NCBI GenBank assembly: GCA_964562675.1
Contig: CAZLUG010000002.1
Coordinates: 5,852-69,851 of the forward strand
Source of the DNA: an uncultured Candidatus Saccharibacteria bacterium
GTDB taxonomy: Bacteria; Patescibacteriota; Minisyncoccia; Minisyncoccales; CG1-02-41-26
Direction: 5' to 3'
Length of the DNA: 64,000 nt
In this document: positions 13,245-29,932 of the stretch, piece by piece
Layout of the letters: every line of letters begins with the position of its first letter
Numbering within the stretch: position 1 is the first letter of the stretch
Translations under genes and position numbers: made by a program
Notes under the pieces: generated by a model
The model's database searches: none
Told to the model about the DNA's origin: nothing
Seen by the model: only the letters and a program-made list of their open reading frames with translations

Positions 13245-13316
13245 AAATAATTAGAAAAAATTTTTAATATTTGTTAAACCCAGAAAAAATTAAATTCCAT
13301 TAGAAAAATAATTCTT

Positions 13317-13880: not shown

Positions 13881-13913
13881 ATCACTTTTTATTTTGGAAT
13901 TTTTAGAAATTTT

Positions 13914-14099
13914 ATGGCAAAAAAATCACAAATCGTTAAAGCTCAAAAGAAACCGAAATTTAAAACTAGAACAGTAAATCGCTGTTTTAAATGTGGCCGG
14001 AAAAGAGGATTCATTAGAAAGTTTGGTCTCTGCAGAATTTGTTTTCGAGAAATGGCAAGCAAAGGGGAAATTCCGGGAGTCAAAAAATCTTCTTGGTAA
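13914..14099 (+). CDS. rpsN: 30S ribosomal protein S14 type Z (zinc-binding)
   Basis: 61 aa with [23 protein letters not shown] (C-x2-C...C-x2-C), in the conserved position between rplE and rpsH. Confidence 0.9.
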
Positions 14100-14128
14100 C
14101 AAATAATTTTTTAAAGAAATAAATAATT

Positions 14129-14521: not shown

Positions 14522-14618
14522 GTTCGAGAAGAAATTAAGGAAGGCTTTTAATATATAGGTGCTTAAATAAGTTTTAGATTTTATATATTATCAAGCCGAC
14601 TTATTCTTTTATAAGATT

Positions 14619-15164
14619 GTGAGCAAAATAGGGAAAAAAATAATTGAAATACCCGAAGGAGTGGAAGTTAAAATTAATAATGAAACAGTTACAGTTAAAG
14701 GGCCGAAAGGAGAACTCTCCCTACGGATTTTGCCAGAGGTGGAAATTAAGGCCAAAGACAAGAAAGTGATTGTTTTGCCAAGAAAGCAAACAAGGAAAAC
14801 AGAAGCTTTTTGGGGATTAACAAGAATGCTTTTGTTTAATCAGATAAAAGGGGTGAGCGAGGGATTTGAAAAGAAGCTGGAGATAAAAGGCATTGGGTAT
14901 AAGGCTGTTTTAGAGGGAAATAATAAGTTGCGTTTAGAGGTAGGATTTTCTCATCCCGTTATTTTTGATATTCCAACTGGAATTGAAGCAAAGGTGGAAA
15001 AGAACATTATCACTATTTCAGGCATTGATAAACAGAAGGTAGGTGAATTTGCAGCCAGCATTCGCAGAATAAGACCCCCGGAACCATATAAAGGAAAAGG
15101 TATTCGTTATTTAGGTGAAGTGGTAAGACGAAAAGAAGGCAAACGAACGGTTGCCACTAGTTAG
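14619..15164 (+). CDS. rplF: 50S ribosomal protein L6
   Basis: GTG start. uL6 pattern: [33 protein letters not shown]. Confidence 0.93.
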
Positions 15165-15181
15165 TTGAAAGGTTTTTATTT

Positions 15182-15631
15182 ATGTTATCTTATCAAAATA
15201 AAAGGCAAAATAGGCACCGAAGAATTCGGGCAAAAGTTAGGGGTAAATCAGAAATCCCCCGTCTTTGCGTTTTTAGATCGCATAAGCACATTTATGCTCA
15301 GTTAATTGATGATGAAAAATCCAAAACTCTTTTAACAGCGAGTGACCTTGACCTTAAAGAATCATCTCGGGCCAAGGGGTTGAAAGAATCTTTGCCGCCA
15401 AAAAAAATAGCGGGAGATAAGAAAAAAAAGGCTCAAGAGCCAAAATCAAAAGTCTCTGAGATAAAGAGAACATCAAAAGTTTCTTTGGCTTTCGATTTAG
15501 GAAAGTTAATTGCTGAAAAAGCGTTAAAGCAAAAGATAAAAAAGGTTGTTTTTGACAGAGGTGGATATTTGTACCATGGTAGAGTAAAGGCAATTGCTGA
15601 TGGCGCTAGAGAGGGAGGTTTAAAATTCTAA
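15182..15631 (+). CDS. rplR: 50S ribosomal protein L18 (with ~40-aa K-rich internal insertion)
   Basis: uL18 N- and C-terminal blocks, [19 protein letters not shown]...[28 protein letters not shown], are split by a low-complexity K/S-rich segment. Confidence 0.85.
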
Positions 15632-15657
15632 AAACATTTTAAGAAAATATTCTATTT

Positions 15658-16128
15658 ATGTTTAGAAAACAAAGAAATCAGAAATTTAAAAAGAGCGAAT
15701 ACGAATCTAAACTTTTAGATTTGACGAGGGTTACAAGAGTAACGGCTGGCGGGAAACAATTAAGATTTAGAGCAGTTGTAGTTGTAGGCAACAAAAAAGG
15801 AAAAGTTGGGGTAGAAATAGCCAAAGGCAGTGATGTGGCGAAAGCTATTACGAAAGCGACAAGATTAGCGAAAAAGCGTTTGATAGAAATTCCGCTTATC
15901 GATAAAGGCATCCCTTATGAAATAGAAACAAAATTTGGGAGTGCTCGAGTAATCTTAAGACCTCAAAAGAAAGGGAAAGGGCTTATTGCCGGAGGAGCAA
16001 TGAGAGTAGTTTGTGATTTAGTTGGTATTAAGGATATCTCTGCTAAAATTCTTTCGAAATCAAGAAACAAATTTACAATTGCCAAAGCAACCATTAAAGC
16101 TCTGCAAAAATTAACCGAAACTCATTAA
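15658..16128 (+). CDS. rpsE: 30S ribosomal protein S5
   Basis: uS5 pattern: RVTRVTAGGKQLRFRAVVVVGNKKGKVGVEIAKGSDVAKAI...LIAGGAMRVVCDLVGIKDISAK. Confidence 0.93.
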   Translation: MFRKQRNQKFKKSEYESKLLDLTRVTRVTAGGKQLRFRAVVVVGNKKGKVGVEIAKGSDVAKAITKATRLAKKRLIEIPLIDKGIPYEIETKFGSARVILRPQKKGKGLIAGGAMRVVCDLVGIKDISAKILSKSRNKFTIAKATIKALQKLTETH

Positions 16129-16141
16129 TTTAGGAATATAT

Positions 16142-16576
16142 ATGCAAATCCATCAAGTTAAACCTATCCACAAATCCCAGAAAAAGAAAAGAATCGGCCG
16201 AGGAGGAGTTAAAGGACATTTTTCCGGGCGAGGAATGAAAGGGCAAAAATCAAGAGCAGGCAGGAAAATGCAACCGTTTATCAGAGAACTAATTAAAAAA
16301 TATAAAAAGTTGCGGGGTTACAAGATGAAATCTAGAAAGAAGAAACAGATTGGCATCAATCTTGGTTTTTTGAATAAAAAATTTAGAGCGGGTGATTTGA
16401 TTAATCCAGCAATATTAGTTCAAAAAAAGATTGTCAGGCGGCAAGAGGGGAAAGTTCCAGAGATTAAAATTTTAAGCCAAGGAAAATTGCAAAAGAAATT
16501 TATCTTCCAAGGATGCAGTTTTTCAAAAAAAGCAGAAGAGAAAATAAAAGAACAAAAGGGGATCATTAAATCATAG
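16142..16576 (+). CDS. rplO: 50S ribosomal protein L15
   Basis: uL15 pattern: KKKRIGRGGVKGHFSGRGMKGQKSRAG. It follows rpsE after only 13 nt, so no rpmD (L30) lies between them. Confidence 0.9.
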   Translation: MQIHQVKPIHKSQKKKRIGRGGVKGHFSGRGMKGQKSRAGRKMQPFIRELIKKYKKLRGYKMKSRKKKQIGINLGFLNKKFRAGDLINPAILVQKKIVRRQEGKVPEIKILSQGKLQKKFIFQGCSFSKKAEEKIKEQKGIIKS

Positions 16577-16620
16577 AACCGCAACTGCTTACTTGGCACT
16601 TAAATGAGGAGAATAATCCT

Positions 16621-17904
16621 ATGAATTGGTTTCAAAAACTCATTCTTATTTTTAAAAATCGCCAATTACGGAATAAAATTCTTTTTGTTCTAGGAATCTT
16701 TGTAGTTTTCCGGTTGATGGCTAATATTCCTATTCCGGGTATTAATATCGAGAACCTGAGAAGATTTTTTGCTCAGAACCAAATGTTTGGCCTTTTAAAC
16801 CTGTTTACGGGCGGAGCCTTAAGCAATCTCTCAATTGTGATGTTAGGGCTTGGCCCATATATCACGGCGGTTATTATTCTCCAGCTTTTGACAATGATTT
16901 TCCCTCAGTTGGAAAAAATGTATAAAGAGGAGGGAGAACAGGGCCGAAGGAAATTCAACCAATACGGAAGACTTTTAACCGTCCCTTTGGCAGCGCTTCA
17001 GGGCTATGGGATGTTAACGCTTTTCCAACATCAAAATATTATTCCTAGTCTTTCTCCTATTTTACTTCTTAGTTCTCTTTGTACCATTACGGGGGGAGCG
17101 GTGCTTTTAATGTGGCTTGGTGAATTGATTTCTGAGAAGGGTATTGGGAATGGAGTTTCCCTGCTTATTTTTGCAGGGATTGTGGCGAGAACCCCTATGC
17201 AGCTTCGCCAAATAGTTTTGACTTGGGATATTTCGAGAGTTCCTTCTTATATTGCCTTTTTCATTGGTTCGATATTTATTATTGTAGGAGTGGTTTTAGT
17301 TAATGAAGCAAGGCGGAATATTCCAGTTTCTTACGCTAAGCGAGTGCGCGGGCAAAAAATGTATGGAGGGGTTTCAACTTATTTGCCAATGATGGTTAAT
17401 CCTGCCGGGGTAATACCTATTATTTTTGCCTTAAGCCTTCTTCTTTTCCCCGGCATGCTTGCTAATATGTTAGCCGCCACCGGCAATGCTGTTTGGGCTG
17501 GTTTTGCCAAAGGTTTGAGTAATTTCCTACAAAATGGTTGGATCTATGGCAGTTTATATTTTGTTTTAGTATTTATCTTTACTTACTTTTATACCGCCGT
17601 GACTTTTGACCCTAAAGCAGTTTCTGAAAATTTACAGAAAATGGGAGGATTCATTCCTGGAATTAGACCGGGACGTTCAACGGCAGAGTTTTTACATAAA
17701 ATTTTGTACAGAATTTTAATCATCGGAGCAAGTTTTTTAGGATTTGTGGCAATTTTGCCTTCAATTATACAAGGTATTACGGGAGTGACGGCTCTTAGAT
17801 TTTTAACTGGAGGCACGGGATTGCTAATTATTGTTAGCGTGGTTCTGGATAGTTGGCGGCATATTAAGGCCCAGCTTGAAATGCGGGAATACGAAAAACT
17901 TTAG
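16621..17904 (+). CDS. secY: preprotein translocase subunit SecY
   Basis: 427 aa with 10 predicted TM segments and SecY signature regions: GIxP, LLQLLTMIFPQLE, GGTGLLIIVSVVLD. Confidence 0.95.
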   Translation: MNWFQKLILIFKNRQLRNKILFVLGIFVVFRLMANIPIPGINIENLRRFFAQNQMFGLLNLFTGGALSNLSIVMLGLGPYITAVIILQLLTMIFPQLEKMYKEEGEQGRRKFNQYGRLLTVPLAALQGYGMLTLFQHQNIIPSLSPILLLSSLCTITGGAVLLMWLGELISEKGIGNGVSLLIFAGIVARTPMQLRQIVLTWDISRVPSYIAFFIGSIFIIVGVVLVNEARRNIPVSYAKRVRGQKMYGGVSTYLPMMVNPAGVIPIIFALSLLLFPGMLANMLAATGNAVWAGFAKGLSNFLQNGWIYGSLYFVLVFIFTYFYTAVTFDPKAVSENLQKMGGFIPGIRPGRSTAEFLHKILYRILIIGASFLGFVAILPSIIQGITGVTALRFLTGGTGLLIIVSVVLDSWRHIKAQLEMREYEKL

Positions 17905-17952
17905 ATTAAGAATTCAATAAGCCAAATCAGCTTGCATAACTATTAAAATTTT

Positions 17953-18645
17953 ATGCACAAATTAGTTGTTATTTTAATGGGAATGCCCGGGGCGGGCAAG
18001 GGAACTCAGGGAACGCTTTTAGCAGAGAAATTCAATTTATATTACTTTGAAACCAGTAAAATTATTGAAAAAGCTATTAAGAATGCTCGCAAAGGAGATT
18101 TTGTTAAAGTTGGTTCTCAAAAGTATTATTTTTCTCACGAAAAGAAGCTCTGGGAAGATGGCGTTATTTGCAGTCCGCCATTTGTTTTCTCTTTGGTCAA
18201 AAAGAAAATTAAAGAACTATTCAAAAAAGATGAAAATTTATTATTGTCTGGTTCCCCGCGGACAATAGAAGAAAGCGAAGCATTAATGCCGCTCTTGGAG
18301 AAATTATACGGGAAGAAAAATATTAAAATTGTTCTCCTGCAAATTTCTGCCGAAGAATCCATTTTTAGAAATTCTCACCGGCGGATTTGTGCTCTTATGC
18401 GGCATCCTATTTTGTACACCCCAGAAACGAAAAACCTCAAAAGGTGTCCCTTAGATGGTTCTAAACTACAGCGCCGGAAAGGTCTTGATGACCCAGAAAC
18501 CATTAAAGTACGGCTGAGAGAGTATCAGCAGAAAACTTTTCCCTTAATAAAATATTTTCAAAAAGAGGGTTTTTCAATCAAGAAAATTAATGGTAAAGGG
18601 TCGGTCGAACAAGTATTTAAAAGAATCTTAGCAAAATTTAAATGA
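17953..18645 (+). CDS. adk: adenylate kinase
   Basis: P-loop GMPGAGKGTQ and a lid-domain metal-binding-like segment (H-x3-C...C-x-x-D), in the conserved position after secY. Confidence 0.9.
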   Translation: MHKLVVILMGMPGAGKGTQGTLLAEKFNLYYFETSKIIEKAIKNARKGDFVKVGSQKYYFSHEKKLWEDGVICSPPFVFSLVKKKIKELFKKDENLLLSGSPRTIEESEALMPLLEKLYGKKNIKIVLLQISAEESIFRNSHRRICALMRHPILYTPETKNLKRCPLDGSKLQRRKGLDDPETIKVRLREYQQKTFPLIKYFQKEGFSIKKINGKGSVEQVFKRILAKFK

Positions 18646-19391
18646 TATCAATTAAATCAGCAGAAGAAATTTCTATTATGAGAGAGGGCGGAAGGTTGTT
18701 GGCAGAAATTCTAGAAAAGGTCAAAAAACAAAGCAAGCCGGGTGTTAAAACCAAAGATTTAGATAAATTAGCGGAATCTCTTATTATCGCCGCTGGGGCG
18801 AAACCAGCATTTAAAGGATATGATGGATTTCCCAGCACTTTGTGCACTTCGGTAAATCAGGTGATAGTCCATCAAATTCCTTCAGACTATCAACTGAAAG
18901 ACGGCGATATTTTTACTTTGGATATAGGGTTGTACCTTAAGGGATTTTTTAGCGATATGGCCCAGACTATTCCTATTGGAAAGGTAAATCCGGAAGGATT
19001 AAGGTTAATTCGCGTTACCAAAAGGTCTTTAAAATACGCTATTCAGAAATCTAGAGCAGGAAATACTTTTGGGGATATAGGGAATACAATTCAACGGTAT
19101 GTTGAATCTCAAGGCTTGAATGTTGTAAGGGAGCTTTGCGGTCACGGAATTGGTAAAGATCTCCACGAAGAACCAGATGTTCTAAATTATGGCCAGCGCC
19201 ACAAAGGACCTAAAATTGAGCCGGGAATGGTTTTTTGTATAGAACCAATGGTTACCCTTGGTGATTGGCAGATTAAGCAGTCCGCGGATAAATCCGGCTG
19301 GGAGACAACCGACGGTTCGTTTTCAGCGCATTTTGAGCATGAAGTAGCTATTTTAAAAAATGGGAAAGCTGAAGTTCTCACGAAAATTTAG
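18642..19391 (+). CDS. map: methionine aminopeptidase type I
   Basis: Metal-ligand blocks: FTLDIG (D), DMAQT, CGHGIG (H), FCIEPMV (E) and FEHEV (E). Confidence 0.93.
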   Translation: MISIKSAEEISIMREGGRLLAEILEKVKKQSKPGVKTKDLDKLAESLIIAAGAKPAFKGYDGFPSTLCTSVNQVIVHQIPSDYQLKDGDIFTLDIGLYLKGFFSDMAQTIPIGKVNPEGLRLIRVTKRSLKYAIQKSRAGNTFGDIGNTIQRYVESQGLNVVRELCGHGIGKDLHEEPDVLNYGQRHKGPKIEPGMVFCIEPMVTLGDWQIKQSADKSGWETTDGSFSAHFEHEVAILKNGKAEVLTKI

Positions 19392-19448
19392 AGCAGGCCA
19401 AGTTAAAATTAATTGATTTTTTTGTTTTAAACTTATTGAATAATTAGT

Positions 19449-20498
19449 TTGAATAAAATTTTTATGAAGCGCACTAAAAATATTAAATTTCCTTCTGAAT
19501 TACGCTTTGACCCGATGGGAGAAGACTGGGTAGTTGTGGCAGTAGGGCGCGCCAAAAGACCTGAAATTTTAAAATGGCAACCTGCTAAGAGAGTTCGAAG
19601 TTCAAAAATTAATTGTCCATTTTGCCATCTCGAGACTCAAAAAAAACCTCTCTTAATTTTTGCCCAAGGAGAAAAAATTGTTTCCCCAAAAAAAATTCCT
19701 GCTCATTGGACAACGGCAGTTATCCCAAACAAATTTCCTGCTTTTCAACCAGCGAATTCTTTAAAAGTTATTCAAGAAGGGCCTTATAAATTAATGCCCG
19801 CTGTTGGTTTTCATGAATTAGTTATTACCAGAGACCACAAAAAACACATTGCTAAATTATCTCTTTCCGCTATCAGAGAAATGATTGATGCTTACCAGGA
19901 TAGATATTTATCTTTAAAAAATAAAAAATTCGTGAATTATATATCCATCTTTTGTAATCACCGAGCAGAGGCAGGTGCTTCTATTCCTCATCCTCACTCT
20001 CAAATTATAGCTATTCCCTTGATTGATTCTGATCTCCGCAAAGCTTTAGGAAATGCTAGGCGATATTATAAAAATCATCAAAAATGTCTTTATTGTGCAG
20101 GTAATGCTTTAGAAAAGAAAGAGAAAAAAAGAATTATTTTTGAAAATAAGGAATTTTTAGCTATCTGTCCGTTTGCCTCAAAGGTTGCTTTCGAGGTTAT
20201 TATTTCTCCCAAAAAACACCTTCCGTATTTTGAAAACATTACCTCGGAAGAAAAAAAATACTTGGCTGAGACTTTCAAAGTTGTTCTTTCTAAACTTGAT
20301 CGAGGGTTAAATAATCCTCCTTATAATTTCTATTTGCACACTGCTCCTTGCGATGGGCAGGATTATAGCTTTTATCATTGGCATTGGACGATTCTTCCGA
20401 AAACGGCTACAATGGCTGGCTTTGAATTAGGGGCAAGAATTGAGATTTCGACTATTGAACCAGAAAAGGCTGCTGAATATTTAAGAAAACAAAAATGA
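19449..20498 (+). CDS. galT: galactose-1-phosphate uridylyltransferase-family (GalT/HIT-like) protein
   Basis: 349 aa, similar in length to class I GalT (~348 aa). It has an N-terminal CPFC zinc motif and the HPHSQ active-site motif (GalT HPHGQ). Confidence 0.7.
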   Translation: MNKIFMKRTKNIKFPSELRFDPMGEDWVVVAVGRAKRPEILKWQPAKRVRSSKINCPFCHLETQKKPLLIFAQGEKIVSPKKIPAHWTTAVIPNKFPAFQPANSLKVIQEGPYKLMPAVGFHELVITRDHKKHIAKLSLSAIREMIDAYQDRYLSLKNKKFVNYISIFCNHRAEAGASIPHPHSQIIAIPLIDSDLRKALGNARRYYKNHQKCLYCAGNALEKKEKKRIIFENKEFLAICPFASKVAFEVIISPKKHLPYFENITSEEKKYLAETFKVVLSKLDRGLNNPPYNFYLHTAPCDGQDYSFYHWHWTILPKTATMAGFELGARIEISTIEPEKAAEYLRKQK

Positions 20499-20505
20499 TA
20501 TATTT

Positions 20506-21267
20506 ATGAGATTAATAGTGGCCAACTGGAAAATGAATCCGATTTCTTCAAAGAGAGCTCTCGAAATTTTTAATCAATTTTTAAGGGGTATAACAATCTC
20601 GCATACTGAGGTTATTATTTGTCCTCCATTTTTATATCTTCCATTTTTATCCACTAAGCTTAAGAAGCTAAAGGAAAAGAAAATTAAATTAGGGGCTCAG
20701 GATTGCGCTTTTGCTGAAAAAGGCGCTTTTACTGGTGAGATTTCTCCTTTGATGCTGAAAGACTTGGGGGTAAAATTTGTCATTCTCGGTCATTCTGAAC
20801 GCCGGATGATACTTAAAGAAACTGATGAAATCATCAACAAGAAATTAAAAGAAGCTTTGAAAACAGGCCTTCAACCCATTCTTTGTATTGGCGAGACAAT
20901 TGCTGAAAGGGAAAAAGGAAAAACTTTTTTAGTCTTGGAGAATGAAATTAAAAAGGGGTTAAAAGGAATATCACGCAGAGACGCTGCAAAAATTCTTTTT
21001 GCTTACGAACCGATTTGGGCAATTGGGAAAAGAGATTCATGCCCGGTTCATGAAGTAATGATTGAAGCGCTTTCAATCAGAAAAATTCTGACGGGGTTAT
21101 ATAATAAAAAAATTGCCAAATCAGCTAAGATTCTTTATGGAGGAAGTATAGATTCGACTAATGTAAATGATTATCTGCACAATTTTGCTCTCCAAGGTTT
21201 TTTAGTTGGAGGTTCTTCTATTGAACCAAAAGATTTTGTTAAAATAGTTAAGATTGCGGGAAAGTGA
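20506..21267 (+). CDS. tpiA: triosephosphate isomerase
   Basis: TIM motifs: IVANWKMN, ILGHSERR, GETIAERE, YEPIWAIGKR and YGGS. Confidence 0.93.
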   Translation: MRLIVANWKMNPISSKRALEIFNQFLRGITISHTEVIICPPFLYLPFLSTKLKKLKEKKIKLGAQDCAFAEKGAFTGEISPLMLKDLGVKFVILGHSERRMILKETDEIINKKLKEALKTGLQPILCIGETIAEREKGKTFLVLENEIKKGLKGISRRDAAKILFAYEPIWAIGKRDSCPVHEVMIEALSIRKILTGLYNKKIAKSAKILYGGSIDSTNVNDYLHNFALQGFLVGGSSIEPKDFVKIVKIAGK

Positions 21268-21838
21268 TTTTCAATATTATCCCCGGATTTTTTTCATTAC
21301 AGCTTTAGCGCTTAAATTTATGCTGAGTTTTAAAGAAGCTAACTTTTACAATCCAACTGTGGGACGATTGACGTTTCAAATGACTGTTCAGGAGATTTTG
21401 CGATATATGGCTGAAAAGCCCGAAAAATTTTACGATGTTGTGGTAGGGTGCGACTCCTCATCTGAAGAAATTCCCACTTTCCCAGTCGTTATTGTGGTCT
21501 TGAGGGTAGGAGAAGGAGGAAGATTTTTTATCAGGAAAATTTCTTATCCTTCAGCTCCAAGAGGTAAATTTCATAATTTTCACCAGAGAATCTTACAAGA
21601 AATCCTATTATCTTGTGAACTTGCTTTGTCATTAAAAGAAGAATTAAGCAAACAAATACGTATCAGGCACGCGAGTTTTCATTATCGGTTCCGTTATATC
21701 CATGCTGACATCGGGGAACAAGGCCCAACGAAAGATATGATTAAAGAAGTAGTAAATTTGATTCAAAGTAATGGTTTTGAAGCAAAGATTAAACCAGAAT
21801 CATTTGCTGCCTCAATAGTGGCAGATAGATTTACTTAA
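21254..21838 (+). CDS. hypothetical protein (possible RNase H-like fold; assignment tentative)
   Basis: ORF overlaps the tpiA stop by 14 nt. It has a DVVVGCDSS...VVIVVLRVGEGG beta-strand/acidic pattern and no recognisable catalytic signature. The actual start may be an internal Met (e.g. ~21320). Confidence 0.35.
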   Translation: MRESDFQYYPRIFFITALALKFMLSFKEANFYNPTVGRLTFQMTVQEILRYMAEKPEKFYDVVVGCDSSSEEIPTFPVVIVVLRVGEGGRFFIRKISYPSAPRGKFHNFHQRILQEILLSCELALSLKEELSKQIRIRHASFHYRFRYIHADIGEQGPTKDMIKEVVNLIQSNGFEAKIKPESFAASIVADRFT

Positions 21839-21845
21839 TTAAATT

Positions 21846-23711
21846 ATGAATTCTGCTGGTATAAGAAAAAAATTTTTGGATTTTTTCAAGAAAAATGGGC
21901 ATAAGATTATTTCTTCGAGCTCTTTAGTTCCCAATGATTCTACCGTTCTTTTTACTTCGGCCGGGATGCAGCAATTAGCTCCTTATTTATCAGGGGAAAA
22001 AGACGTTATAAAAGATTTTGGTCAAAGGCACCTCGCTTCTTGCCAGAAGTGCCTGAGAACGGGAGATATTGATGCGATAGGAGATGACACTCACCATACT
22101 TTTTTTGAAATGTTGGGGAACTGGTCAATTGGCCAAGATAAAGATGGATACTTTAAAGAGAAAGCGATTAAGTATTCTTTAGATTTTCTTTGTAATGTTT
22201 TGAAGCTCGAAAAGAAACGGCTGTGGGTAACAATTTTTAAAGGTGATGGAAAAATTCCTCGAGACGAGGCGTCTTTAAGGATTTGGCAGGAAAATGGAAT
22301 TCCCCGATCTAGAATTAGGGAGTTTGGCATGGAAGACAATTTCTGGGGTCCCGTTAGAGAAACTGGCCCATGCGGTCCCTGTACTGAAATTCACTATGAC
22401 CGCGGAGAAAAATTTGGTTGTGGCCGCGCTGATTGTGGTCCAAATTGTCCATACTGCCAACGATTTGTAGAGGTTTGGAATTTGGTTTTTATGGAGTATG
22501 ACAAGCAATTAATGTCTACCCAAAAAGGGAAGCCGGCTTATATCTATAAAAAATTGCCCCAGAAAAACGTTGATACAGGTATGGGATTTGAAAGATTAAT
22601 TTCTATTTTAGAGAAAAAACCCTCTGCTTATGAAACTGATATTTTTTCTTTAGCGTTGAAAACTGTTATTCAAAAGTCTCCCTATGAATACGATGGACGC
22701 CAAAAACAATTCAGAATTTTGGTAGACCACTTGAGAGCAGTAATCTTTCTAGCCGCTGAAGGGTTAACTCCAAGCAATTTAGGCAGGGGATACATTTTAC
22801 GGCGGATTCTCAGAAGAATTATGAGATATGCTAAAGAGCTTGAATTGCCAAAACAATGGTATGTAGATTGTATAAAGGCTTTTTTAAAAACTTATCAATC
22901 TTTTTATCCGGAGCTTTTGCGGAAAGAATCTGAAACTCTTGTTATTATCCAAAATGAGGAAGAAAAATTTCAAAAGACGCTACGCCAGGGCTTAAAAGAA
23001 TTTAAGAAACTTATATTTTCAAAAACCCAAAGAAGTAAATCAAAAATAATCACGGGCCGAGAAGCTTTTGAACTTTATGAAACTTATGGGTTTCCCTTGG
23101 AATTTACAAAAGAAATGGCTCTAGAACAAGGGTTTGGAGTCGAGGAGAAAGAATTCAAGGAAGCCTTAGAGCAACACCGAATAGTATCCCGTCGAGGCGC
23201 TAAAGAGAAATTTGGAGGACACGGAATCAAAGAAGATAATCCAAGCTTTTCAAAGGATAATCTTAAAATTATAAGACTTCACACAGCCACTCATCTGCTT
23301 CAAGCAGCTTTGAGAAAAATTTTAGGTAAGGAGGTTTCTCAGAAAGGCTCTGACATTAATGCTGAAAGGCTACGATTTGATTTTTCTTTTAATCGAAAGC
23401 TGACTCAAGAGGAGATTAGAAAAGTAGAGGATTTAGTCAATGGGAAAATCCGGGAGAATTTAAAAGTACGGTGGGAAAAGATGCCCAAGAGTCAAGCGCT
23501 GGCTTCTAAAGCTTTGGCGTTTTTCCCTGAAAAATATCCGGATGTAGTGAGAGTGTACACTATTTTTAACCCTGAAACCGGTGAGGTTTTTTCTCAAGAA
23601 ATTTGCGCTGGACCCCACGTGGAGAGTATATTAGAATTAGGTAAGTTTAAAATTATAAAAGAGAATTCTTTAGGACGAGGAATACGGCGGATTAAAGCAA
23701 TTCTAAAATAA
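21846..23711 (+). CDS. alaS: alanyl-tRNA synthetase, shortened form (catalytic + editing domains, no C-Ala domain)
   Basis: The AlaRS N-terminus is FLDFFKKNGHKIISSSSLVPNDSTVLFTSAGMQQ...FFEMLGNWSIG. The editing-domain motifs are HTATHLLQAAL and CAGPHV. It is only 621 aa against ~870 aa for typical bacterial AlaRS. Confidence 0.88.
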   Translation: MNSAGIRKKFLDFFKKNGHKIISSSSLVPNDSTVLFTSAGMQQLAPYLSGEKDVIKDFGQRHLASCQKCLRTGDIDAIGDDTHHTFFEMLGNWSIGQDKDGYFKEKAIKYSLDFLCNVLKLEKKRLWVTIFKGDGKIPRDEASLRIWQENGIPRSRIREFGMEDNFWGPVRETGPCGPCTEIHYDRGEKFGCGRADCGPNCPYCQRFVEVWNLVFMEYDKQLMSTQKGKPAYIYKKLPQKNVDTGMGFERLISILEKKPSAYETDIFSLALKTVIQKSPYEYDGRQKQFRILVDHLRAVIFLAAEGLTPSNLGRGYILRRILRRIMRYAKELELPKQWYVDCIKAFLKTYQSFYPELLRKESETLVIIQNEEEKFQKTLRQGLKEFKKLIFSKTQRSKSKIITGREAFELYETYGFPLEFTKEMALEQGFGVEEKEFKEALEQHRIVSRRGAKEKFGGHGIKEDNPSFSKDNLKIIRLHTATHLLQAALRKILGKEVSQKGSDINAERLRFDFSFNRKLTQEEIRKVEDLVNGKIRENLKVRWEKMPKSQALASKALAFFPEKYPDVVRVYTIFNPETGEVFSQEICAGPHVESILELGKFKIIKENSLGRGIRRIKAILK

Positions 23712-23735
23712 TCACCAAGGAAAAATAAAAAAAGT

Positions 23736-24932
23736 ATGGTTTTGCCTTTCTTTAAAATATTTTCTGCTAGGACACCTTCGCGGAAGGATTTTCTTTTCTT
23801 GGCTATTGGCAATAACCAGGTAGAGGGGTTAGTATTTCAAAAAACAATAGATAAAAAAATAAAAGTTTTGGCTTATGACCGTGAGCCCATTGAACTTTTT
23901 GGGATTTTTGAAACCAGGAATTTTTACAATGAAGTTTTGAAACGGTCTATTTTTAAAATTTTGAAATCTCTCCAGCTTGAACGAGGAAAATTTACCGAGG
24001 TGTTTGTTAACCTAGGTCCAAGAGATTTAAAAAGTTATGTTTCTTATATTAATTTTCACCGAAAAAATCCTGGAAAGATTTCCGAAAAGGAGAAAGATGA
24101 TATTTTAGATTTTGCCTTTAAGGAATCAGCTAACGAGCTTTATGAAAAATTTTCTCGAAATGCTACCAATTCTGCAAAAAAAGATATTAAACTCATCAGA
24201 CGTAAAATTTTGGATATTAAAATTTCCGGATATTCTGTGCCGACTTTAGTTGGTTACACTGGGAAAGATATTGGGTTGAGAATTCTTTCGATTTTAGGAT
24301 ATCAATCAGAGCTTAAGAGATACACAAACATACTTCAATATTTTGGTTTTAAGAAAATTGATTTTAGAAGCAAAGCCGAGGGACTTGCGGATTGGCTAGA
24401 GCAAAAAAAGAAAGATTCCGAAAAGTACTCCGCGACCATTTTAGATGTAACTTCAAATAACACCCAAGTTTTCTTGATTCAGAAAAACTGCTTAGATTGG
24501 GTAGGAGAATTTAAAATAGGCGAAAATAATTTTTTAGAAGTTCTGTCAAAGAAATTTGGCATGCAATCTTCAATGGCTTCTCAATTAGTTGAAAAATTTA
24601 TTAGAGGGAAATTAGAGAAAAATTTAACAAAAGAACTTGAGAAATATTTTTCGTTGCCTTTTAATACTTGGTGCGATCAGCTAAAGTACGAGCTTGAAGA
24701 ATTTAAAAAGAGAAATTTTATTTTTGTTCAATCTTTCCACTTTCTTGAGAATACAATTCTCATTCCTCTTCTGCGTTCTAGCTCGGGAAAGAATACTTTT
24801 GGAGAGTTGATCATTCTAGAGAATTTTAAAATTTCTTCTTTACGGCCGAAAGATTTTTCTATCAAGGCTAATTCTCGCTATCTCAATAATCCACTTGCTA
24901 CGAGAATTACTTTATTAGCTTTAGGAACTTAA
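23736..24932 (+). CDS. hypothetical protein, possibly actin-like ATPase (FtsA/PilM-like)
   Basis: ~400 aa. The N-terminal segment FLFLAIGNNQVEGLVFQ weakly resembles the phosphate-1 loop of FtsA/PilM, and the size fits, but there is no firm motif match. Confidence 0.3.
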   Translation: MVLPFFKIFSARTPSRKDFLFLAIGNNQVEGLVFQKTIDKKIKVLAYDREPIELFGIFETRNFYNEVLKRSIFKILKSLQLERGKFTEVFVNLGPRDLKSYVSYINFHRKNPGKISEKEKDDILDFAFKESANELYEKFSRNATNSAKKDIKLIRRKILDIKISGYSVPTLVGYTGKDIGLRILSILGYQSELKRYTNILQYFGFKKIDFRSKAEGLADWLEQKKKDSEKYSATILDVTSNNTQVFLIQKNCLDWVGEFKIGENNFLEVLSKKFGMQSSMASQLVEKFIRGKLEKNLTKELEKYFSLPFNTWCDQLKYELEEFKKRNFIFVQSFHFLENTILIPLLRSSSGKNTFGELIILENFKISSLRPKDFSIKANSRYLNNPLATRITLLALGT

Positions 24933-24935
24933 TAT

Positions 24936-26192
24936 ATGATCAAGAAAATTTTTGATATTAAACCACCGGAGAAGGACGAAAGAGTTGTTCAATCTTTCCC
25001 GGAAAAAACTGGATTGCCAAAACAACACTCAATCCATTTGAAAAAAATTCTCTTTTTTGGTTTAGGACTATTGATTTTTAGTCTTGGCATGGTCGTCATT
25101 ATTGATTTAAACTCAAAAATGATAATTGAGTTAACGCCTCGCGAGAGGATTATCACAGCTACCACGACTGTTCAGGCTATCTCTGAAACATCAGCTTCTA
25201 CCTCCCAAGAAAAGGCTATTAACACCCAGTTATTGAAAATTCACCAAGACGCCACAGAGAAATTTTCAGCGACGGGGGAAAAAACCGAAGAAGGGAAGGC
25301 AAAAGGAACAATACGTATTTATAATAAAAGTCTTTCTTCTCAGACAATAGTTTTTCGAGCGGGTACCCGTTTTTTATCTTCAGATGGCTCAAAAACTTTT
25401 GTTTCTCCCAAAAAAATCTATATTCCTGCTAGCTATTTTAAAAACGGGAAAAGACTGCCAGGTACGGTAGATGTCACAGTTGAAGCTGTGGAGCCGGGAC
25501 CGGACTATAATATTGGGCCCTCGAAATTTTCTGTTCCTGGATTGTCGGGCGATGCTTTATATTACAGTATTTACGGCGAATCAAATTCTTCGTTTTCCGG
25601 TGGTTTTAAAAAGAGCGTTAAGGTAGTCAGTAAAAGTGACTTGGAAAAGGCTAAACAAAATCTTCGAGGAGAACTTTTACATAATGCGAATCAGAGTTTA
25701 AAGCAAAAATTGCCCAAGGATTTCGTTTTTCTCAAAAAAAGCACTTCTACAGAATCACTAAAAATTTCTTGTTCCCAGAAATCTGGTGATGTTGTTTCGG
25801 CGTTTTCTTGTCAAGGAGATATTTTTTTAGAAGCTTTGGTTTTTGACGGCAAAGAATTAGAAAGTATTGCCAAAAAAATTGTTTTAAAGCAACTTTTGGA
25901 CTCAGAAGCTATTAATGAAAATAGTTTATCTTTTCACTACGATGTAGAGAATTTAGATATCAAAAAAGGGACAGCAACCCTTAGTATAAATTCTTTAGTC
26001 AAAGTTTATAAGAAAATAGACAAAAATTTTCTAAAATCAAGAATTAAGGGTGAATCAGAAAGCACAATGAGAAACATTATAGCCAGTGAATTTCCCGAAA
26101 TTCAGAAAGCGGAAATTAAAATATTTCCCTTTTGGCTGCATTCGGCGCCGAAGAATGAAAACAAAATTACTTTTGTTTTAAAACTAAATTAG
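24936..26192 (+). CDS. hypothetical bitopic membrane protein (short cytoplasmic N-terminus, one TM, large extracytoplasmic domain)
   Basis: The TM helix LFFGLGLLIFSLGMVVII lies ~35 aa from the N-terminus. The remainder is Ser/Thr/Lys-rich and beta-rich. It directly follows the FtsA/PilM-like gene. Confidence 0.4.
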   Translation: MIKKIFDIKPPEKDERVVQSFPEKTGLPKQHSIHLKKILFFGLGLLIFSLGMVVIIDLNSKMIIELTPRERIITATTTVQAISETSASTSQEKAINTQLLKIHQDATEKFSATGEKTEEGKAKGTIRIYNKSLSSQTIVFRAGTRFLSSDGSKTFVSPKKIYIPASYFKNGKRLPGTVDVTVEAVEPGPDYNIGPSKFSVPGLSGDALYYSIYGESNSSFSGGFKKSVKVVSKSDLEKAKQNLRGELLHNANQSLKQKLPKDFVFLKKSTSTESLKISCSQKSGDVVSAFSCQGDIFLEALVFDGKELESIAKKIVLKQLLDSEAINENSLSFHYDVENLDIKKGTATLSINSLVKVYKKIDKNFLKSRIKGESESTMRNIIASEFPEIQKAEIKIFPFWLHSAPKNENKITFVLKLN

Positions 26193-26280
26193 CCTGAAAT
26201 TTTGCCAGTGGAGAATTTACTTTTGTCATCGGCAGCAATGGAAAAAGTTGACGTTTAAATAAATTTTTGCTAAGATAAAT

Positions 26281-26514
26281 TTGGATTTAGTTAAATTAAT
26301 GTTAAAGAAAAATCAAGCAAGAGGGGAAGTTATTGAGGCCTTGCCCAGCCTCTCTTTTAAGGTAAAATTGGAGAATGGACAGGAAGTCCTTGCTCGTTTA
26401 AGAGGAAAGTTAAGAGTTTATAGAATTAAGATTTTGCCGGGGGATAAAGTGATTGTTGAAATAAGCCCTTACGACAAAACTAAAGGTAGAATTATTTACC
26501 GACTTAAGTATTGA
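26281..26514 (+). CDS. infA: translation initiation factor IF-1
   Basis: IF-1 S1-like fold: [62 protein letters not shown]. Confidence 0.9.
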
Positions 26515-26596
26515 AAGACAACCAGCAAAGAGGCTTAGCGAGCAATAACTTCATTCCATTTTTAACGGCAGAAGCCGATTTTCTTATTTAGGTATT

Positions 26597-26713
26597 ATGA
26601 AAGTTCGTTCATCAGTGAAGAAAATTTGTGATAATTGTAAAATTGTCCGCCGAAAAGGGAAAGTCTATGTGATTTGTAAAAATCCTAAGCATAAACAAAG
26701 GCAAGGGAGGTGA
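26597..26713 (+). CDS. rpmJ: 50S ribosomal protein L36
   Basis: Not in the ORF track because it is under 60 aa. Translation gives [38 protein letters not shown], a canonical bL36 zinc ribbon. Confidence 0.9.
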
Positions 26714-26756
26714 TTTTGCTATTTAAAGGTTTTTTGAATTTTGTTAAATTTATTTT

Positions 26757-27146
26757 ATGGTACGTATTGTAGGCGTTAGTATTCCTGACGAAAAATATAT
26801 AGATATTGCTCTAACCTATATTTATGGTATAGGTCGTTCTTTGGCTAACAAAATTTTGCAAGAAACAAAAATCAGTTCTTCAAAAAAAACAAAAGATTTG
26901 AGCGAGGAAGAATTAAACCGGATTAAAAAGTTTATCGATGATCATTTTGTCATTGAAGGAGAACTTCGCCGCCAAGTAGTTTCAAACATTAGAAGGTTAA
27001 AGGGCATAGAATGTTGGCGAGGAATTCGTCATCTCAAGGGGTTGCCTGTTCGCGGACAGAAAACGAGAAAGAATTCCAGGACAGTACGGGGGAATATTAG
27101 AAAAACAGTAGGATCAGGGCACAAAGCTCCTCCGGCGCCGAAATAG
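26757..27146 (+). CDS. rpsM: 30S ribosomal protein S13
   Basis: uS13 pattern: MVRIVGVSIPDEKYIDIALTYIYGIGRSLANKIL...LKGLPVRGQKTRKNSRT. Confidence 0.95.
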   Translation: MVRIVGVSIPDEKYIDIALTYIYGIGRSLANKILQETKISSSKKTKDLSEEELNRIKKFIDDHFVIEGELRRQVVSNIRRLKGIECWRGIRHLKGLPVRGQKTRKNSRTVRGNIRKTVGSGHKAPPAPK

Positions 27147-27205
27147 TTTTCAGATAAATACTAAAATTTTGTTGAGATAACTTATTAATTTATTTTTCAA
27201 AAAGT

Positions 27206-27658
27206 ATGGGAAAGAAACGAGTTATTCATAGGACAAAAGAAGAAATTCTCAAAGAAGGGGAAAGAATAGAGAAAGCTGTTAGCAAGGAAATTAAAACAAA
27301 AGTTTTGCCAAAGATTAGGGAAGGCAGGTTTTATATTTTTTCAAGTTACAATAATACAATAGTTTCCCTCACCGATGACAAGGGAGATGTCTTAGCCCAG
27401 AGAAGTGCAGGAGCCATTGGCTTTAAAGGAACAAAAAAGGGTACTTCTTTCGCTGCTTCACGTGTAGCTCAAGTTATGGTAAATATTGCCGAAAAGCTTA
27501 AAATTCAGAAAATTCATATCTTTGTTAAGGGAATTGGCAGTGGGCGAGAATCTGTTCTCCGCACTTTAATGAATTATGGATTTGACGTTCTTTCTATCCA
27601 AGATGTCACACCTATTCCCCATAATGGTTGTCGGCCAAAAAAAGTCAGAAGGGTATAG
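27206..27658 (+). CDS. rpsK: 30S ribosomal protein S11
   Basis: uS11 pattern: IFSSYNNTIVSLTDDKGDVLAQRSAGAIGFKGTKKGTSFAA...IFVKGIGSGRESVLRTL. Confidence 0.95.
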   Translation: MGKKRVIHRTKEEILKEGERIEKAVSKEIKTKVLPKIREGRFYIFSSYNNTIVSLTDDKGDVLAQRSAGAIGFKGTKKGTSFAASRVAQVMVNIAEKLKIQKIHIFVKGIGSGRESVLRTLMNYGFDVLSIQDVTPIPHNGCRPKKVRRV

Positions 27659-27738
27659 CAATAATATTTGTTTTTGAGATTTTGTTTGGGGGAAATAGTA
27701 TATTTATTAGAAATAAAAAATATTAATTATTTAGAGTT

Positions 27739-27801
27739 ATTATATTCATTCTTGTATGCAGAAAAATGCTTGTAAAATTTGTAGAAGGTTAGGGCAAAAA
27801 C
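27739..27801 (+). repeat. direct repeat copy 1 (63 bp, identical to 27935..27997): 17 nt of 5' leader + first 15 codons of rpsD
   Basis: Exact 63/63 match at an offset of 196 bp. Mismatches flank both ends (27738 vs 27934, 27802 vs 27998). Confidence 0.9.
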
Positions 27802-27935
27802 GCCGCTCCGCTTTCCAGACCCTGGCGGTTCTGGCGTCCCGTTTTCAACGGGACTGTTTCCACTACGGAGAAACATTCTGTTTCCCCGCCCCCTTTTTGG
27901 GTTTTTGCCCTAAAAGGAGTAATATCATAGATTAA
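27756..27935 (+). CDS. upstream ORF (59 codons): first 15 codons of S4 fused to read-through of the GC-rich insert
   Basis: ATG 27756 reads MQKNACKICRRLGQK, then out of S4 sequence through the structured element, and stops at TAA 27933-27935, 17 nt before the authentic rpsD ATG. It is below the 60-aa ORF-track cutoff. Whether it is translated is unknown. Confidence 0.3.
   Translation: MQKNACKICRRLGQKRRSAFQTLAVLASRFQRDCFHYGETFCFPAPFLGFCPKRSNIID
27792..27910 (+). ncRNA. GC-rich (~60% GC) multi-hairpin RNA element closed by a 10-bp outer stem, embedded in the rpsD leader
   Basis: Outer stem: GGGCAAAAAC (27792-27801) pairs with GTTTTTGCCC (27901-27910). Internal perfect hairpins: CCAGA/TCTGG (27815-27834), GTCCCG-TTTTCAA-CGGGAC (27836-27854) and TGTTTC-CACTACGGA-GAAACA (27855-27875). 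This is strikingly GC-rich against the ~35% GC background. Confidence 0.55.
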
Positions 27936-27997
27936 TTATATTCATTCTTGTATGCAGAAAAATGCTTGTAAAATTTGTAGAAGGTTAGGGCAAAAAC
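27935..27997 (+). repeat. direct repeat copy 2 (63 bp), containing the authentic rpsD start
   Basis: Identical to 27739..27801. ATG 27952 continues into the full-length S4 ORF. Confidence 0.9.
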
Positions 27998-28581
27998 TCT
28001 TTTTGAAGGGAGAAAAATGTTTTTCTTCTAAATGTCCAATGATTAAGAAACCTTATCCTCCTGGGAAAACAACTCAAAAAAGGAGAAGACGTTTATCTGA
28101 ATACGGAGTAGAATTTGCCGAAAAACAGAAGCTAAAGAACTGGTATAATCTTTCAGAGCATCAGTTTTATCAATACGTCTCTAAGGCTTTATCAGAAAGG
28201 AAAAAAGCTGAAGAAACTCCCTTAGAGCTCTTAAATTTATTAGAGAGGCGGTTTGACAATGTGGTTTTCAGATTGGGTTTTGCAGCTTCAAAAAAGGAGG
28301 CGCGCCAACTTGTTTCTCACGGGTTTTTTTTCGTGAATGGCAAAAAAGTCAATATTCCTTCGTTCCAGCTTAAAAAGGGTGATGTTGTATCTTTAGCGGC
28401 AAGCAAAGCAAAGAAAGAAAAAACTAAAGTTTTTAGCCTTCGTTTAAAGAAAGCTCAGCCTCCTGCTTGGTTGAAGTTGTTGAAAGAAAAAATGGAAGGG
28501 AAAGTTTTAAGAGATCTTAATTTAAGCGACTTGAGTTTTCCGGCTGAGATTTCTTCAATTTTTGAGTTTTATTCACGATAA
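27952..28581 (+). CDS. rpsD: 30S ribosomal protein S4
   Basis: The uS4 N-terminal zinc finger is [23 protein letters not shown] and the S4 RNA-binding domain is [38 protein letters not shown]. Confidence 0.93.
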   Translation: [209 protein letters not shown]

Positions 28582-28626
28582 TTGATTAAGTCGAAAATTT
28601 AAAATGCCCATTTTTGGGAAAAATAT

Positions 28627-29577
28627 ATGATTCCTTTACCATCTCAAATAAAAGTCACTAATCAAGCAAAAAACAAGGCGAATTTTGAAATATCGGGATT
28701 ATATCCCGGCTACGGCATCACGATTGGTAATACCTTAAGAAGAGTACTCCTTTCTTCTTTAGAGGGTGCAGCTATTACACAGTTTAAAATTAAAGGAGTC
28801 ACTCAGGAATTATCTACTTTGCCCGGCGTTTTAGAGGATACTATCTTTATCATTTTAAACCTTAAAAGATTACGTTTTAGAAGTTATAGCCAACAGCCCC
28901 AAAAAGCTACTTTGGATGTACGAGGAGCAAAGGTTGTATGTGGCAAAGATCTCAAATTACCACCTGATCTGCAAATAGTAAATCCCGAAGAAAAAATAGC
29001 CACTCTCACTGCCAAATCTTCTCATTTAGAAATGGAAGTTCAGGTTGAAAAGGGAGTAGGATACAATTCTGTAGAAAAGAGACCGGAAGATAAAAAAACT
29101 ATAGGCACAATTCCCATAGATGCTATTTTTACGCCCGTTAAAAAAGTGAGTTTCCGAGTGGATAATATGATGGTTGGCAAAAGAACTGATTTTGATAAAC
29201 TGCAGATTGCAATTGAGACAGATGGCACCCTGACTCCTCGAGCCGCTTTGCAGCAAGCGATAGATCTTCTCATCAAACATTTTTCTGACCTCAATGACCT
29301 TTTAAGCAAAGGAAACGAGCAAAAGGAGTCTTCAAAAAAGAGTATTAAGCCAAAAAGCTCAAAAAAGGAAGAAACAAAAGCCGAGGAACCACAAAATATT
29401 GAGAACCTAAAAATTTCTCAGAGAATTAAAAACGCTTTACTGAATAATAACATTAAGACCGTTAATGGTTTACTTCGCAAGCCCGAAAAAACGATTTTGG
29501 GCTTAGAAGGAATGGGAACAAAAAGCGTGCGAGAACTTAAGAAAGCTCTCAAGAAATTAGGTTTAGAGCTAAAATAG
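28627..29577 (+). CDS. rpoA: DNA-directed RNA polymerase subunit alpha
   Basis: 316 aa with N-terminal dimerisation domain (NTLRRVLLSSLEGAAI) and a C-terminal alpha-CTD HhH after a K/E-rich linker. Confidence 0.93.
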   Translation: MIPLPSQIKVTNQAKNKANFEISGLYPGYGITIGNTLRRVLLSSLEGAAITQFKIKGVTQELSTLPGVLEDTIFIILNLKRLRFRSYSQQPQKATLDVRGAKVVCGKDLKLPPDLQIVNPEEKIATLTAKSSHLEMEVQVEKGVGYNSVEKRPEDKKTIGTIPIDAIFTPVKKVSFRVDNMMVGKRTDFDKLQIAIETDGTLTPRAALQQAIDLLIKHFSDLNDLLSKGNEQKESSKKSIKPKSSKKEETKAEEPQNIENLKISQRIKNALLNNNIKTVNGLLRKPEKTILGLEGMGTKSVRELKKALKKLGLELK

Positions 29578-29581
29578 TCTT

Positions 29582-29932
29582 ATGCGGCATCTTAAAAAAG
29601 GACGAAAATTTTCAATGAAAGCTGCTCCAAGAAAAGCCTTATTAATTTCACTAGCAAGTGAGATTGTTTTGCGGGGGAAAATTAAGACTACTCATGCCAA
29701 AGCCAAAGAAGTTTCTTCTTACTTAGAAAAGTTTTTGACCAAAGCCAAAAAAGGAGATTTAGCCTCTCGAAGAATGATTAATCGTTATTTTTCTAAAAAA
29801 ACTACAAAAAAAATGATTGAAGAAATCGCTCCTAAAATACAAACTCGGAAAGGAGGTTATACAAGAGTTATTAAACTTGGTCCTCGGAAAGGAGATGGGG
29901 CAAAGATGGCGGTTATAGAGCTTGTGAAATAA
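29582..29932 (+). CDS. rplQ: 50S ribosomal protein L17
   Basis: bL17 pattern: MRHLKKGRKFSMKAAPRKALLISLASEIVLRGKIKTTHAKAKEV...GGYTRVIKLGPRKGDGAKMAVIELV. Confidence 0.93.
   Translation: MRHLKKGRKFSMKAAPRKALLISLASEIVLRGKIKTTHAKAKEVSSYLEKFLTKAKKGDLASRRMINRYFSKKTTKKMIEEIAPKIQTRKGGYTRVIKLGPRKGDGAKMAVIELVK

Follow-up and report, generated by a model that had tools for sequence, protein, structure and literature searches.

The window (the whole 64,000-nucleotide stretch of DNA that was analysed) contains the start of rpsD, the gene for ribosomal protein S4, twice. The 63 nucleotides at 27739-27801 recur without a single mismatch at 27935-27997, giving a direct repeat (R, copies 1 and 2). The 133 nt between them (27802-27934) are GC rich, with 58.6% GC over the first 99 nt and 56% over the first 112 nt, compared with ~35% window-wide. 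An initial annotation of this DNA had recognized the 63-bp duplication, the 133-bp insert and its GC content, and our analysis confirmed all three. The features of the locus are as follows; L001 denotes a near-identical strain described below.

27206-27658, + strand: rpsK (ribosomal protein S11), the upstream operon gene; a 150-aa ORF, with Pfam Ribosomal_S11 found on the identical L001 gene.
27659-27738, + strand: native S11-S4 spacer (u), common to the empty allele; 100% identity to L001 up to 27801.
27739-27801, + strand: R copy 1, a pseudo-start; 17 nt from the end of the rpsD leader plus the first 15 S4 codons and 1 further nt.
27756-27935, + strand: upstream ORF (uORF) of 59 codons with its TAA at 27933-27935; 15 authentic S4 codons, then read-through of the insert.
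27802-27934, no strand assigned: the 133-nt insert, missing from the near-identical strain (alignment with L001).
27804-27906, - strand (antisense to rpsD): core of the structured element E, without the 3' third of the family (relatives-only covariance model R1 and HMM).
27815-27834, - strand: helix P-b of E, CCAGAACC / GGGUCUGG on the minus strand, aligned to model helices 2 and 3.
27836-27854, - strand: variable hairpin between P-a and P-b with an 8-bp perfect stem (folding; comparison with relatives).
27866-27888, - strand: helix P-a of E, CGGGGAAAC / GUUUCUCCG on the minus strand, aligned to model helix 1 and covarying in the family.
27901-27913, + strand: b', 13 nt that repeat rpsD codons 12-15 and 1 further nt exactly in inverted orientation (inverted pairs I5 and I6).
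27914-27934, + strand: x, 21 AT-rich nt containing AAGGAG, presumed donor flanking DNA.
27935-27997, + strand: R copy 2, the functional proximal leader and rpsD start, continuous with the intact S4 ORF.
27952-28581, + strand: rpsD (ribosomal protein S4), intact, 209 aa; protein identical in L001, with Pfam Ribosomal_S4 and S4 domains.

We treat the duplication as 63 nt because the extra 23 nt in the 86-nt extended repeat returned by the repeat finder match at 14 of 23 positions only (empirical p ~0.002 against all window 23-mers). A p value of this size is a weaker signal among AT-rich spacers. No second copy of the insert was found in the 64-kb window, and its x segment has no other copy there at up to 5 mismatches. 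Between the direct repeats lie only the read-through uORF and a 49-aa antisense ORF, and these 133 nt hold no integrase, recombinase or cargo gene. The ORF table agrees with the earlier description of a uORF that starts at 27756 and ends at the TAA of 27933-27935, ahead of the S4 ATG at 27952. Its stop lies 16 nt ahead of the S4 AUG, and rpsD with the insert retains 17 proximal nucleotides of its leader. Protein look-ups found no gene on record for the 59-aa uORF product, nor for the 53-aa partial product expected on a Logan unitig. Read on the element (minus) strand, the order is rpsD antisense (copy 2), x', b (corresponding to rpsD codons 12-15), the truncated E core and rpsD antisense (copy 1); b' thus flanks E on its 5' side in E's own orientation.

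The initial annotation had further proposed a 10-bp outer stem enclosing three hairpins. The outer stem is present and extends to 13 bp, with TTAGGGCAAAAAC (27789-27801) pairing with GTTTTTGCCCTAA (27901-27913), which pairs equally well with the end of R copy 2 (27985-27997). An exact 13-nt inverted copy of the junction-adjacent 13 nt within a 133-nt insert has a chance expectation of ~2e-6, and the window holds just 3 perfect inverted repeats of 13 nt or more, the b' pairing among them. Two of the hairpins, at 27815-27834 and 27836-27854, are as proposed, and the third conserved helix fits 27866-27888 better than the 27855-27875 given before. A folding test had been recommended for 27785-27920. 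The predicted fold of this region is more stable than that of shuffled controls whichever strand is taken (+ strand, z = -3.9 and -54 kcal/mol; - strand, z = -4.35).

Known RNA classes do not account for this structure. A permissive Rfam search (E <= 10) of 27500-28200, and of 27789-27934 alone, returned no relevant family, with matches at chance level only. On 7 loci that carry a full-length E, Rfam likewise gave chance-level matches, plus sub-threshold Alpha_RBS near rpsM starts. Self-cleaving ribozymes and group I/II introns were without an Rfam match at the window region and at these 7 loci, so the suggestion of a ribozyme-like element finds no signature in Rfam. The tRNA/tmRNA scan was negative at the locus, as was the scan for intrinsic terminators over 27100-28700. 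The two ends of the insert are not joined by terminal inverted repeats, the sole inverted repeat being that between host 27789-27801 and internal 27901-27913. An exact 24-mer of the insert matched nothing in 185,579 species genomes or in the JGI metagenomes, and blastn of the insert against phages and plasmids gave no match.

An exact look-up of the S4 protein identified a sole other contig (L001; ENA ERZ23499380, SONG20-1_SAMN10739806 scaffold_27). L001 has one rpsD start and no insert, and it differs from the window by one repeat plus the insert, exactly 196 bp; its S11-S4 spacer is 97 nt, compared with 293 nt in the window, and the uORF is missing from this empty allele. Pieces of the same scaffold_27 (L001, L162, L164 and L166) are colinear with window positions 6621-52773 at 99.88-99.89% identity, with 24 mismatches in 21,181 nt and 26 in 21,206 nt, and every aligned piece is ungapped. 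The 196-bp difference is therefore the only indel or structural difference found over ~46 kb between strains that are ~99.9% identical. S4 and the compared flanking proteins are identical in the two, and none of the 6 SNPs in the adjoining 3.6 kb on the downstream side changes an amino acid. Judged by these alignments, the site is a structural polymorphism between close strains.

Apart from L001, the closest S4 proteins belong to metagenome-assembled genomes of Candidatus Nealsonbacteria and further Parcubacteria; they are only ~60% identical, a figure that holds for Nealsonbacteria S4. We examined 156 related Nealsonbacteria/Parcubacteria loci, namely those in which S11 and S4 were both locatable. 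Their S11-S4 spacers have a median of 10 nt and in most relatives measure 1-20 nt. A duplicated S4 start or an insert at rpsD occurs in 0 of the 156 loci, which also answers the earlier question of whether orthologous loci carry the same arrangement, and we found no intermediate relative with the insert. The 10-nt median spacer and the lack of a duplicated start at these 156 loci exclude a conserved S4-sensing leader at rpsD.

Read-derived contigs speak for the presence of the filled allele. Logan contig SRR8443420_5424 (L163) corresponds to window positions 8733-27768 and ends exactly 30 nt into R (R[30]), and Logan contig SRR8443420_246558 (L167) corresponds to 27968-29655 and starts at R[34], 30 nt before the end of R. 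The latter is identical to the window at 1688 of 1688 positions, window SNP alleles included. If Logan contigs derive from a k=31 graph, 30 nt is k-1. A 63-nt node that is entered from two different sequences and left towards two others makes the unitigs of a k=31 graph stop at 30 and resume at 34. The contig ends at R[30] and R[34] therefore indicate that the SRR8443420 reads hold a second left and a second right context of R. Such second contexts are expected if the filled allele is present, whether by itself or in mixture with the empty allele, and a population with the empty allele alone would be expected to give an unbroken contig; we infer the contexts from the contig ends. By our reasoning, the breaks are not due to a single SNP, since one at position p would leave contig ends at p-1 and p+1 instead of R[30] and R[34]. 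The concern about population heterogeneity that had been voiced in the initial annotation was justified.

The origin of the insert became apparent from relatives. An nhmmer search with the insert gave weak antisense matches to GC-rich spacers in two relatives, and iteration led to a family of elements that we call E. In relatives, E is a structured element of ~170-230 nt that starts just past the stop codon of one gene and whose 3' tail (...GAGCGAYAAAYUWUGWAWUACCACU) abuts the AUG of the next. It occupies the spacer between an upstream ORF and infA (L006), between the genes for L36 and S13 (L019, L141, L125 and L137), between those for S13 and S11 (L087, L096 and L042) and between those for S4 and RpoA (L112, L017 and L051), and it also occurs after the gene for S9 (L091). 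E precedes rpsM, rpsK, rpoA or infA, or follows rpsI, and is never found at rpsD in relatives. Searching all loci with the covariance model R1 recovered 10 copies at E <= 1e-3 in five spacers, all on the + strand and intergenic.

A compact full-length E consists of a 5' stem, the hairpins P-a and P-b, and a 3' three-way junction, and folds with z = -5.1. In an alignment of 11 sequences, which was fitted to the covariance model and for that reason favours the structure, 93.7% of cells are paired, 8 of 19 pairs have changed on both sides, and 0 of 500 shuffles equal this; when the structures are slid by 1-3 columns, the paired share drops to 33-67%. P-b, for example, covaries between UUAAAAACC/GGUUUUUAA and CCAGAAACC/GGUUUCUGG. 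At the position of the variable hairpin at 27836-27854, relatives carry hairpins of differing sequence and length. The covariation test that had been recommended for the locus thus revealed a conserved covarying structure in relatives, but one that lies antisense to rpsD in the window. E is present once in a 7.7-kb contig of a relative and is missing from the ~46 kb of the sister strain, and a 20-mer of the family had no match in viral contigs; judged by these samples, E does not appear to be a high-copy repeat. The literature that we searched held nothing relevant on a CPR ribosomal-operon RNA motif, and E is apparently a previously undescribed covarying multi-domain RNA element of Nealsonbacteria ribosomal-protein operons.

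Membership of the insert in this family was assessed with models built from relatives alone, an HMM from 8 relatives and the covariance model R1 from 6. R1 matches the minus strand of the window at 27906-27804 over the full model (positions 1-108) with 43.7 bits and an E-value of ~6e-9; the next best match in the window has an E-value of 0.41, and on the + strand R1 reaches 11.4 bits only, on a palindromic hairpin. The relatives-only HMM has a single match in the 64-kb window, on the minus strand at 27896-27804 (E-value, 2.8e-4; model positions 30-121 of 190). Because both models match, we regard the insert as a genuine member of E. The copy in the window is nevertheless truncated. It is without the 3' three-way-junction domain and the conserved tail, stops at GAGCGGAGCGGC and is also without the conserved UCGG of the 5' junction. 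It lies on the - strand inside the duplicated 5' end of rpsD, whereas relatives have all 10 copies on the + strand, in intergenic positions. In L006, the 15 nt that flank E on its 5' side (922-936) repeat the last codons of the upstream gene (835-849) perfectly in inverted form, at a distance of 72 nt; the corresponding distance in the window is 71 nt. Perfect inverted repeats of this kind have a background frequency of 0.065 per kb in these loci, so that one coincidence among 11 copies has a chance of ~5%, and the other E members that we checked have no such arms. We take the inverted copy in L006 as a lead and not as a finding.

These data probably reflect a polymorphism in one strain of a Nealsonbacteria-like (Parcubacteria) population, in which the insert is a recent, strain-specific antisense fragment of E, an intact rpsD was regenerated, and the uORF and the stems are by-products of the insertion and not an S4 sensor. 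The initial annotation had favoured a lineage-specific device in which S4 binds the insert and the uORF sets rpsD expression. S4 is an autogenous repressor in E. coli and B. subtilis, the uORF stops 16 nt ahead of the S4 AUG, the 13-nt b' could pair with either copy of b, and the region folds better than shuffled sequence. An evolved leader or attenuator is nevertheless highly improbable: the structure is missing from a ~99.9% identical strain with an identical S4 and from all relatives, which have a median spacer of 10 nt; the conserved helices belong to the antisense strand; E in relatives is never at rpsD; and the lack of an Rfam match and the 63/63 identity, which points to a very recent event, do not suit such a device either. 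The other reading offered there, a structured element inserted with duplication of its target, came close to the evidence, except that the insert is a truncated fragment with flanking DNA and falls short of a complete mobile unit. An artefact of the assembly or the library, in the form of a chimeric join or a mis-traversed graph loop in a genome with a single rpsD start, has in its favour that the source is a metagenome bin, that the site is simple in one assembly (L001) and that the NCBI record apparently calls S4 from Met30, as if the annotators too had found this region odd. The independent SRR8443420 assembly, which breaks k-1 = 30 nt inside both ends of R, makes an assembler artefact unlikely. 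We also reason that a 13-nt identity is too short for graph mis-joins at usual k; 63 is not known to equal k or k-1 in any of the usual metagenome assemblers; and the insert is a genuine clade-specific element and not a contaminant or an adapter. Overall, we consider an artefact of either kind improbable.

A further reading sees in E an active non-autonomous mobile element that makes long target duplications and whose 5' flank, complementary to the target, guides or marks insertion. The five different spacers occupied across genomes, the perfect 13-nt inverted target copy at the 5' flank of the window copy and the perfect 15-nt inverted copy at the same flank in L006, with its spacing of 72 versus 71 nt, are consistent with this. 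However, the L006 arms may be a coincidence (~5% by chance) and are not shared by the other members checked, each sampled locus has a single copy, none is present in the 46 kb of the sister strain or in viral contigs, and the window copy is truncated and antisense. Moreover, neither the gene lists nor the ORFs examined place a transposase, reverse transcriptase or recombinase beside any copy. We therefore hold an active mobile E to be rather unlikely, and its fuller version, an undescribed structured mobile element of Parcubacteria with base-pairing-directed insertion, 13-15-nt flank copies and gene-rebuilding duplications, to be a long shot. If true, base-pairing targeting of this type would be without a described counterpart among bacterial non-autonomous elements. 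The last reading concerns the polarity of the event. The filled state could be older within the species, and L001 could have lost the insert through a precise deletion between the 63-bp repeats. Direct repeats around hairpin-rich DNA are classic deletion substrates, and the repeats here, which flank hairpins, would suit such a deletion; two genomes do not polarize the event, and relatives at ~60% S4 identity show only that the duplication is derived somewhere in the lineage. The 63/63 identity and the lack of an intermediate relative with the insert favour a very recent origin instead, and we find an older filled state doubtful but worth keeping in mind. This alternative would alter the timing of the feature and not its nature.

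How would an antisense fragment of E have reached rpsD? On the reading that we prefer, a recent insertion, 133 nt of DNA would have entered rpsD 46 nt into the coding sequence, made up of the antisense 5' two-thirds of E and, next to it on the + strand, the 13 nt of b' and then the 21 nt of x. The event would have copied 63 bp of the target, namely 17 nt of the leader and S4 codons 1-15. With the target duplicated, a complete rpsD with its proximal leader would be rebuilt downstream, and the dead S4 start would stay upstream and open the 59-codon ORF. The identity of the repeats at all 63 positions implies that this happened very recently. A target duplication of 63 bp is unusually long.

The simplest parse is that one contiguous donor piece (x'-b-E) lies between two copies of the 63-nt target. 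It may have been copied from a donor locus during repair or replication, by a template switch with re-priming 63 nt upstream, or alternatively a 63-nt staggered break may have been filled in. Because the insert is truncated and carries flanking DNA that is not part of the element, we infer that a copy from a donor locus fits better than a complete element having transposed. Searches of the window, of the 46 kb of the sister strain and of the genome and metagenome collections turned up no donor copy, and no microhomology is obvious at either junction. The annealing and template-switch schemes that we drew up on paper either turn E the other way round or move the 13-mer to a junction. None of these simple schemes accounts for an inverted 13-nt copy lying 99 nt into the insert, and the mechanism is therefore incomplete.

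What would the insertion mean for S4 synthesis? Translation initiated at the first AUG would run through 15 S4 codons and then 44 codons from the antisense E. The ribosomes would melt the hairpins of the antisense E on their way and terminate 16 nt ahead of the genuine start codon. Synthesis of S4 probably goes on, either through reinitiation or through independent initiation. A spacing of 16 nt between the uORF and the S4 gene is typical of coupled genes in this clade and may favour continued production of S4. The 59-codon uORF most likely arose as a side effect of the insertion, and we see no sign that it or the stop-start geometry has been selected, but it is conceivable that the insertion has newly acquired a regulatory effect on S4.

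E resembles several known families of short structured repeats that are transcribed together with operons. Like REP/BIME and ERIC of enterobacteria, Correia of Neisseria and BOX/RUP/SPRITE of Streptococcus, it is short (~100-230 nt), hairpin rich and GC richer than its host, and it is likewise intergenic, variably positioned between genomes and polymorphic between close strains. It differs from REP/BIME-type repeats in that it appears to be low copy (at most 1 per sampled locus), in its strongly conserved unpaired nucleotides and multi-domain, functional-RNA-like fold, and in that it is always sense in relatives with its 3' end at the next AUG; the insert, in addition, has ends without mutual terminal inverted repeats and a duplication of 63 bp, not 2-10 bp. 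As with the S4-binding alpha-operon leader (Rfam RF00140 Alpha_RBS), the structured RNA lies in the infA-rpmJ-rpsM-rpsK-rpsD-rpoA region. Unlike that leader, the insert has no Rfam match, is not kept at rpsD in relatives or in the sister strain and has its structure on the antisense strand, and the E family precedes several different genes.

Templated insertions attributed to FoSTeS/MMBIR and filler DNA share with the insert that a fragment with flanking DNA lies between perfect copies of the target and that it is truncated and inverted against the usual orientation, here that of E. They differ in that no donor was found, no junction microhomology is obvious and simple versions of these mechanisms, as far as we traced them, do not yield the 13-nt inverted copy inside the insert. 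In comparison with MITE or IS transposon insertions, the duplication is 63 bp rather than short and the insert is a truncated E with 34 nt of flank, and in comparison with integrative elements that duplicate an att site, the insert is without integrase or recombinase and cargo. As in termination-reinitiation uORFs, the 16-nt gap between stop and AUG resembles the 1-20 nt S11-S4 spacing of relatives, but the uORF here is the decapitated start of the same gene, a product of the duplication, and is missing in the sister strain.

For annotation, the locus presents a decoy S4 start. The public record apparently calls S4 from Met30 (180 aa, P0001; a look-up of P0001 found none on record), whereas the true start of the 209-aa protein is at 27952. 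For the population genomics of CPR bacteria, the site illustrates that the 5' end of an essential gene tolerates a 196-bp insertion, and it provides a clean pair of a filled and an empty site for studying the origins of rearrangements in tiny genomes. The insertion itself is of modest interest. As a candidate new cis-acting RNA, the E family is more promising than the insert, and it merits follow-up together with the target-complementary 13-mer.

E, a GC-rich, structured RNA-like element of about 170-230 nt, contains a pair of hairpins that covary and a three-way junction on its 3' side. Some of its unpaired nucleotides are conserved, and expansion hairpins occur at fixed positions. It occupies different spacers of the infA-rpmJ-rpsM-rpsK-rpsD-rpoA-rplQ-rplM-rpsI region, depending on the Nealsonbacteria/Parcubacteria genome, and every copy in these relatives is in the sense orientation. 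E had no match in Rfam, and the family is apparently new, without an earlier description.

Copies of E in loci of relatives (L numbers; coordinates of each locus, sense)
L112 901-1072
L019 1446-1652
L141 1241-1468
L096 1561-1729
L087 116-287, the same copy as L168 3088-3245
L006 913-1101
L017 3131-3384
L042 1864-2043
L051 3137-3268
L091 5322-5466

The 3' tail of E, AYUWUGWAWUACCACU, is conserved and immediately abuts the AUG of differing genes (rpoA, rpsM and rpsK). No Shine-Dalgarno motif was found in the final ~15 nt of the tail in the five loci listed below. The translation-initiation region of the gene next after E, whichever it is, may come from the element itself.

E tail abutting an AUG
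L112 1057-1075
L019 1637-1655
L096 1714-1732
L141 1453-1471
L137 ~285-302

The JGI gene call for S11 in L169 (160-741) is 193 aa long, being extended upstream by reading through E; hence, copies of E can sit unseen in protein databases as spurious N-terminal extensions.

L006 carries a 15-nt perfect inverted repeat with arms at 835-849 and 922-936, separated by 72 nt. One arm is made up of the upstream ORF's final codons with its stop and the other is the immediate 5' flank of E, a layout resembling that in the window, where arms of 13 nt lie 71 nt apart. With 11 copies of E to consider, an arrangement of this kind would arise by coincidence with a probability of roughly 5%.

The same group of genomes contains another recurrent small element, distinct from E, whose terminal inverted repeats read ACCCCGTTAGAAGT(C)...(G)ACTTCTAACGGGGT, their arms lying 37-110 nt apart. 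It looks like a MITE family.

MITE-like element
L010 1141-1205
L015 4285-4415
L054 4344-4476
L096 822-955
L139 1134-1259
L160 4258-4341

In five relatives, the Rfam model Alpha_RBS (RF00140) gave sub-threshold matches (22-25 bits versus a gathering score of 38) at, or shortly 5' of, the rpsM start. These may represent a diverged S4 operator in its canonical position.

Sub-threshold Alpha_RBS matches
L019 1645-1685
L096 1108-1208
L017 1512-1592
L141 1461-1501
L006 1503-1586

On a 79,612-bp public NCBI contig, from which the window was probably taken, S4 (P0001) is called from Met30 (180 aa), which leaves out the N-terminal Cys-rich segment. The window ORF at 27952-28581, 209 aa from 27952, agrees with the S4 of all relatives. 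The AT-rich S11-S4 spacer (27659-27755) measures 97 nt even in the empty allele, that of the nearly identical strain lacking the insert, whereas it is 1-20 nt in most relatives (median 10; 156 loci). This difference suggests that translational coupling between rpsK and rpsD has been lost in the lineage of the window.
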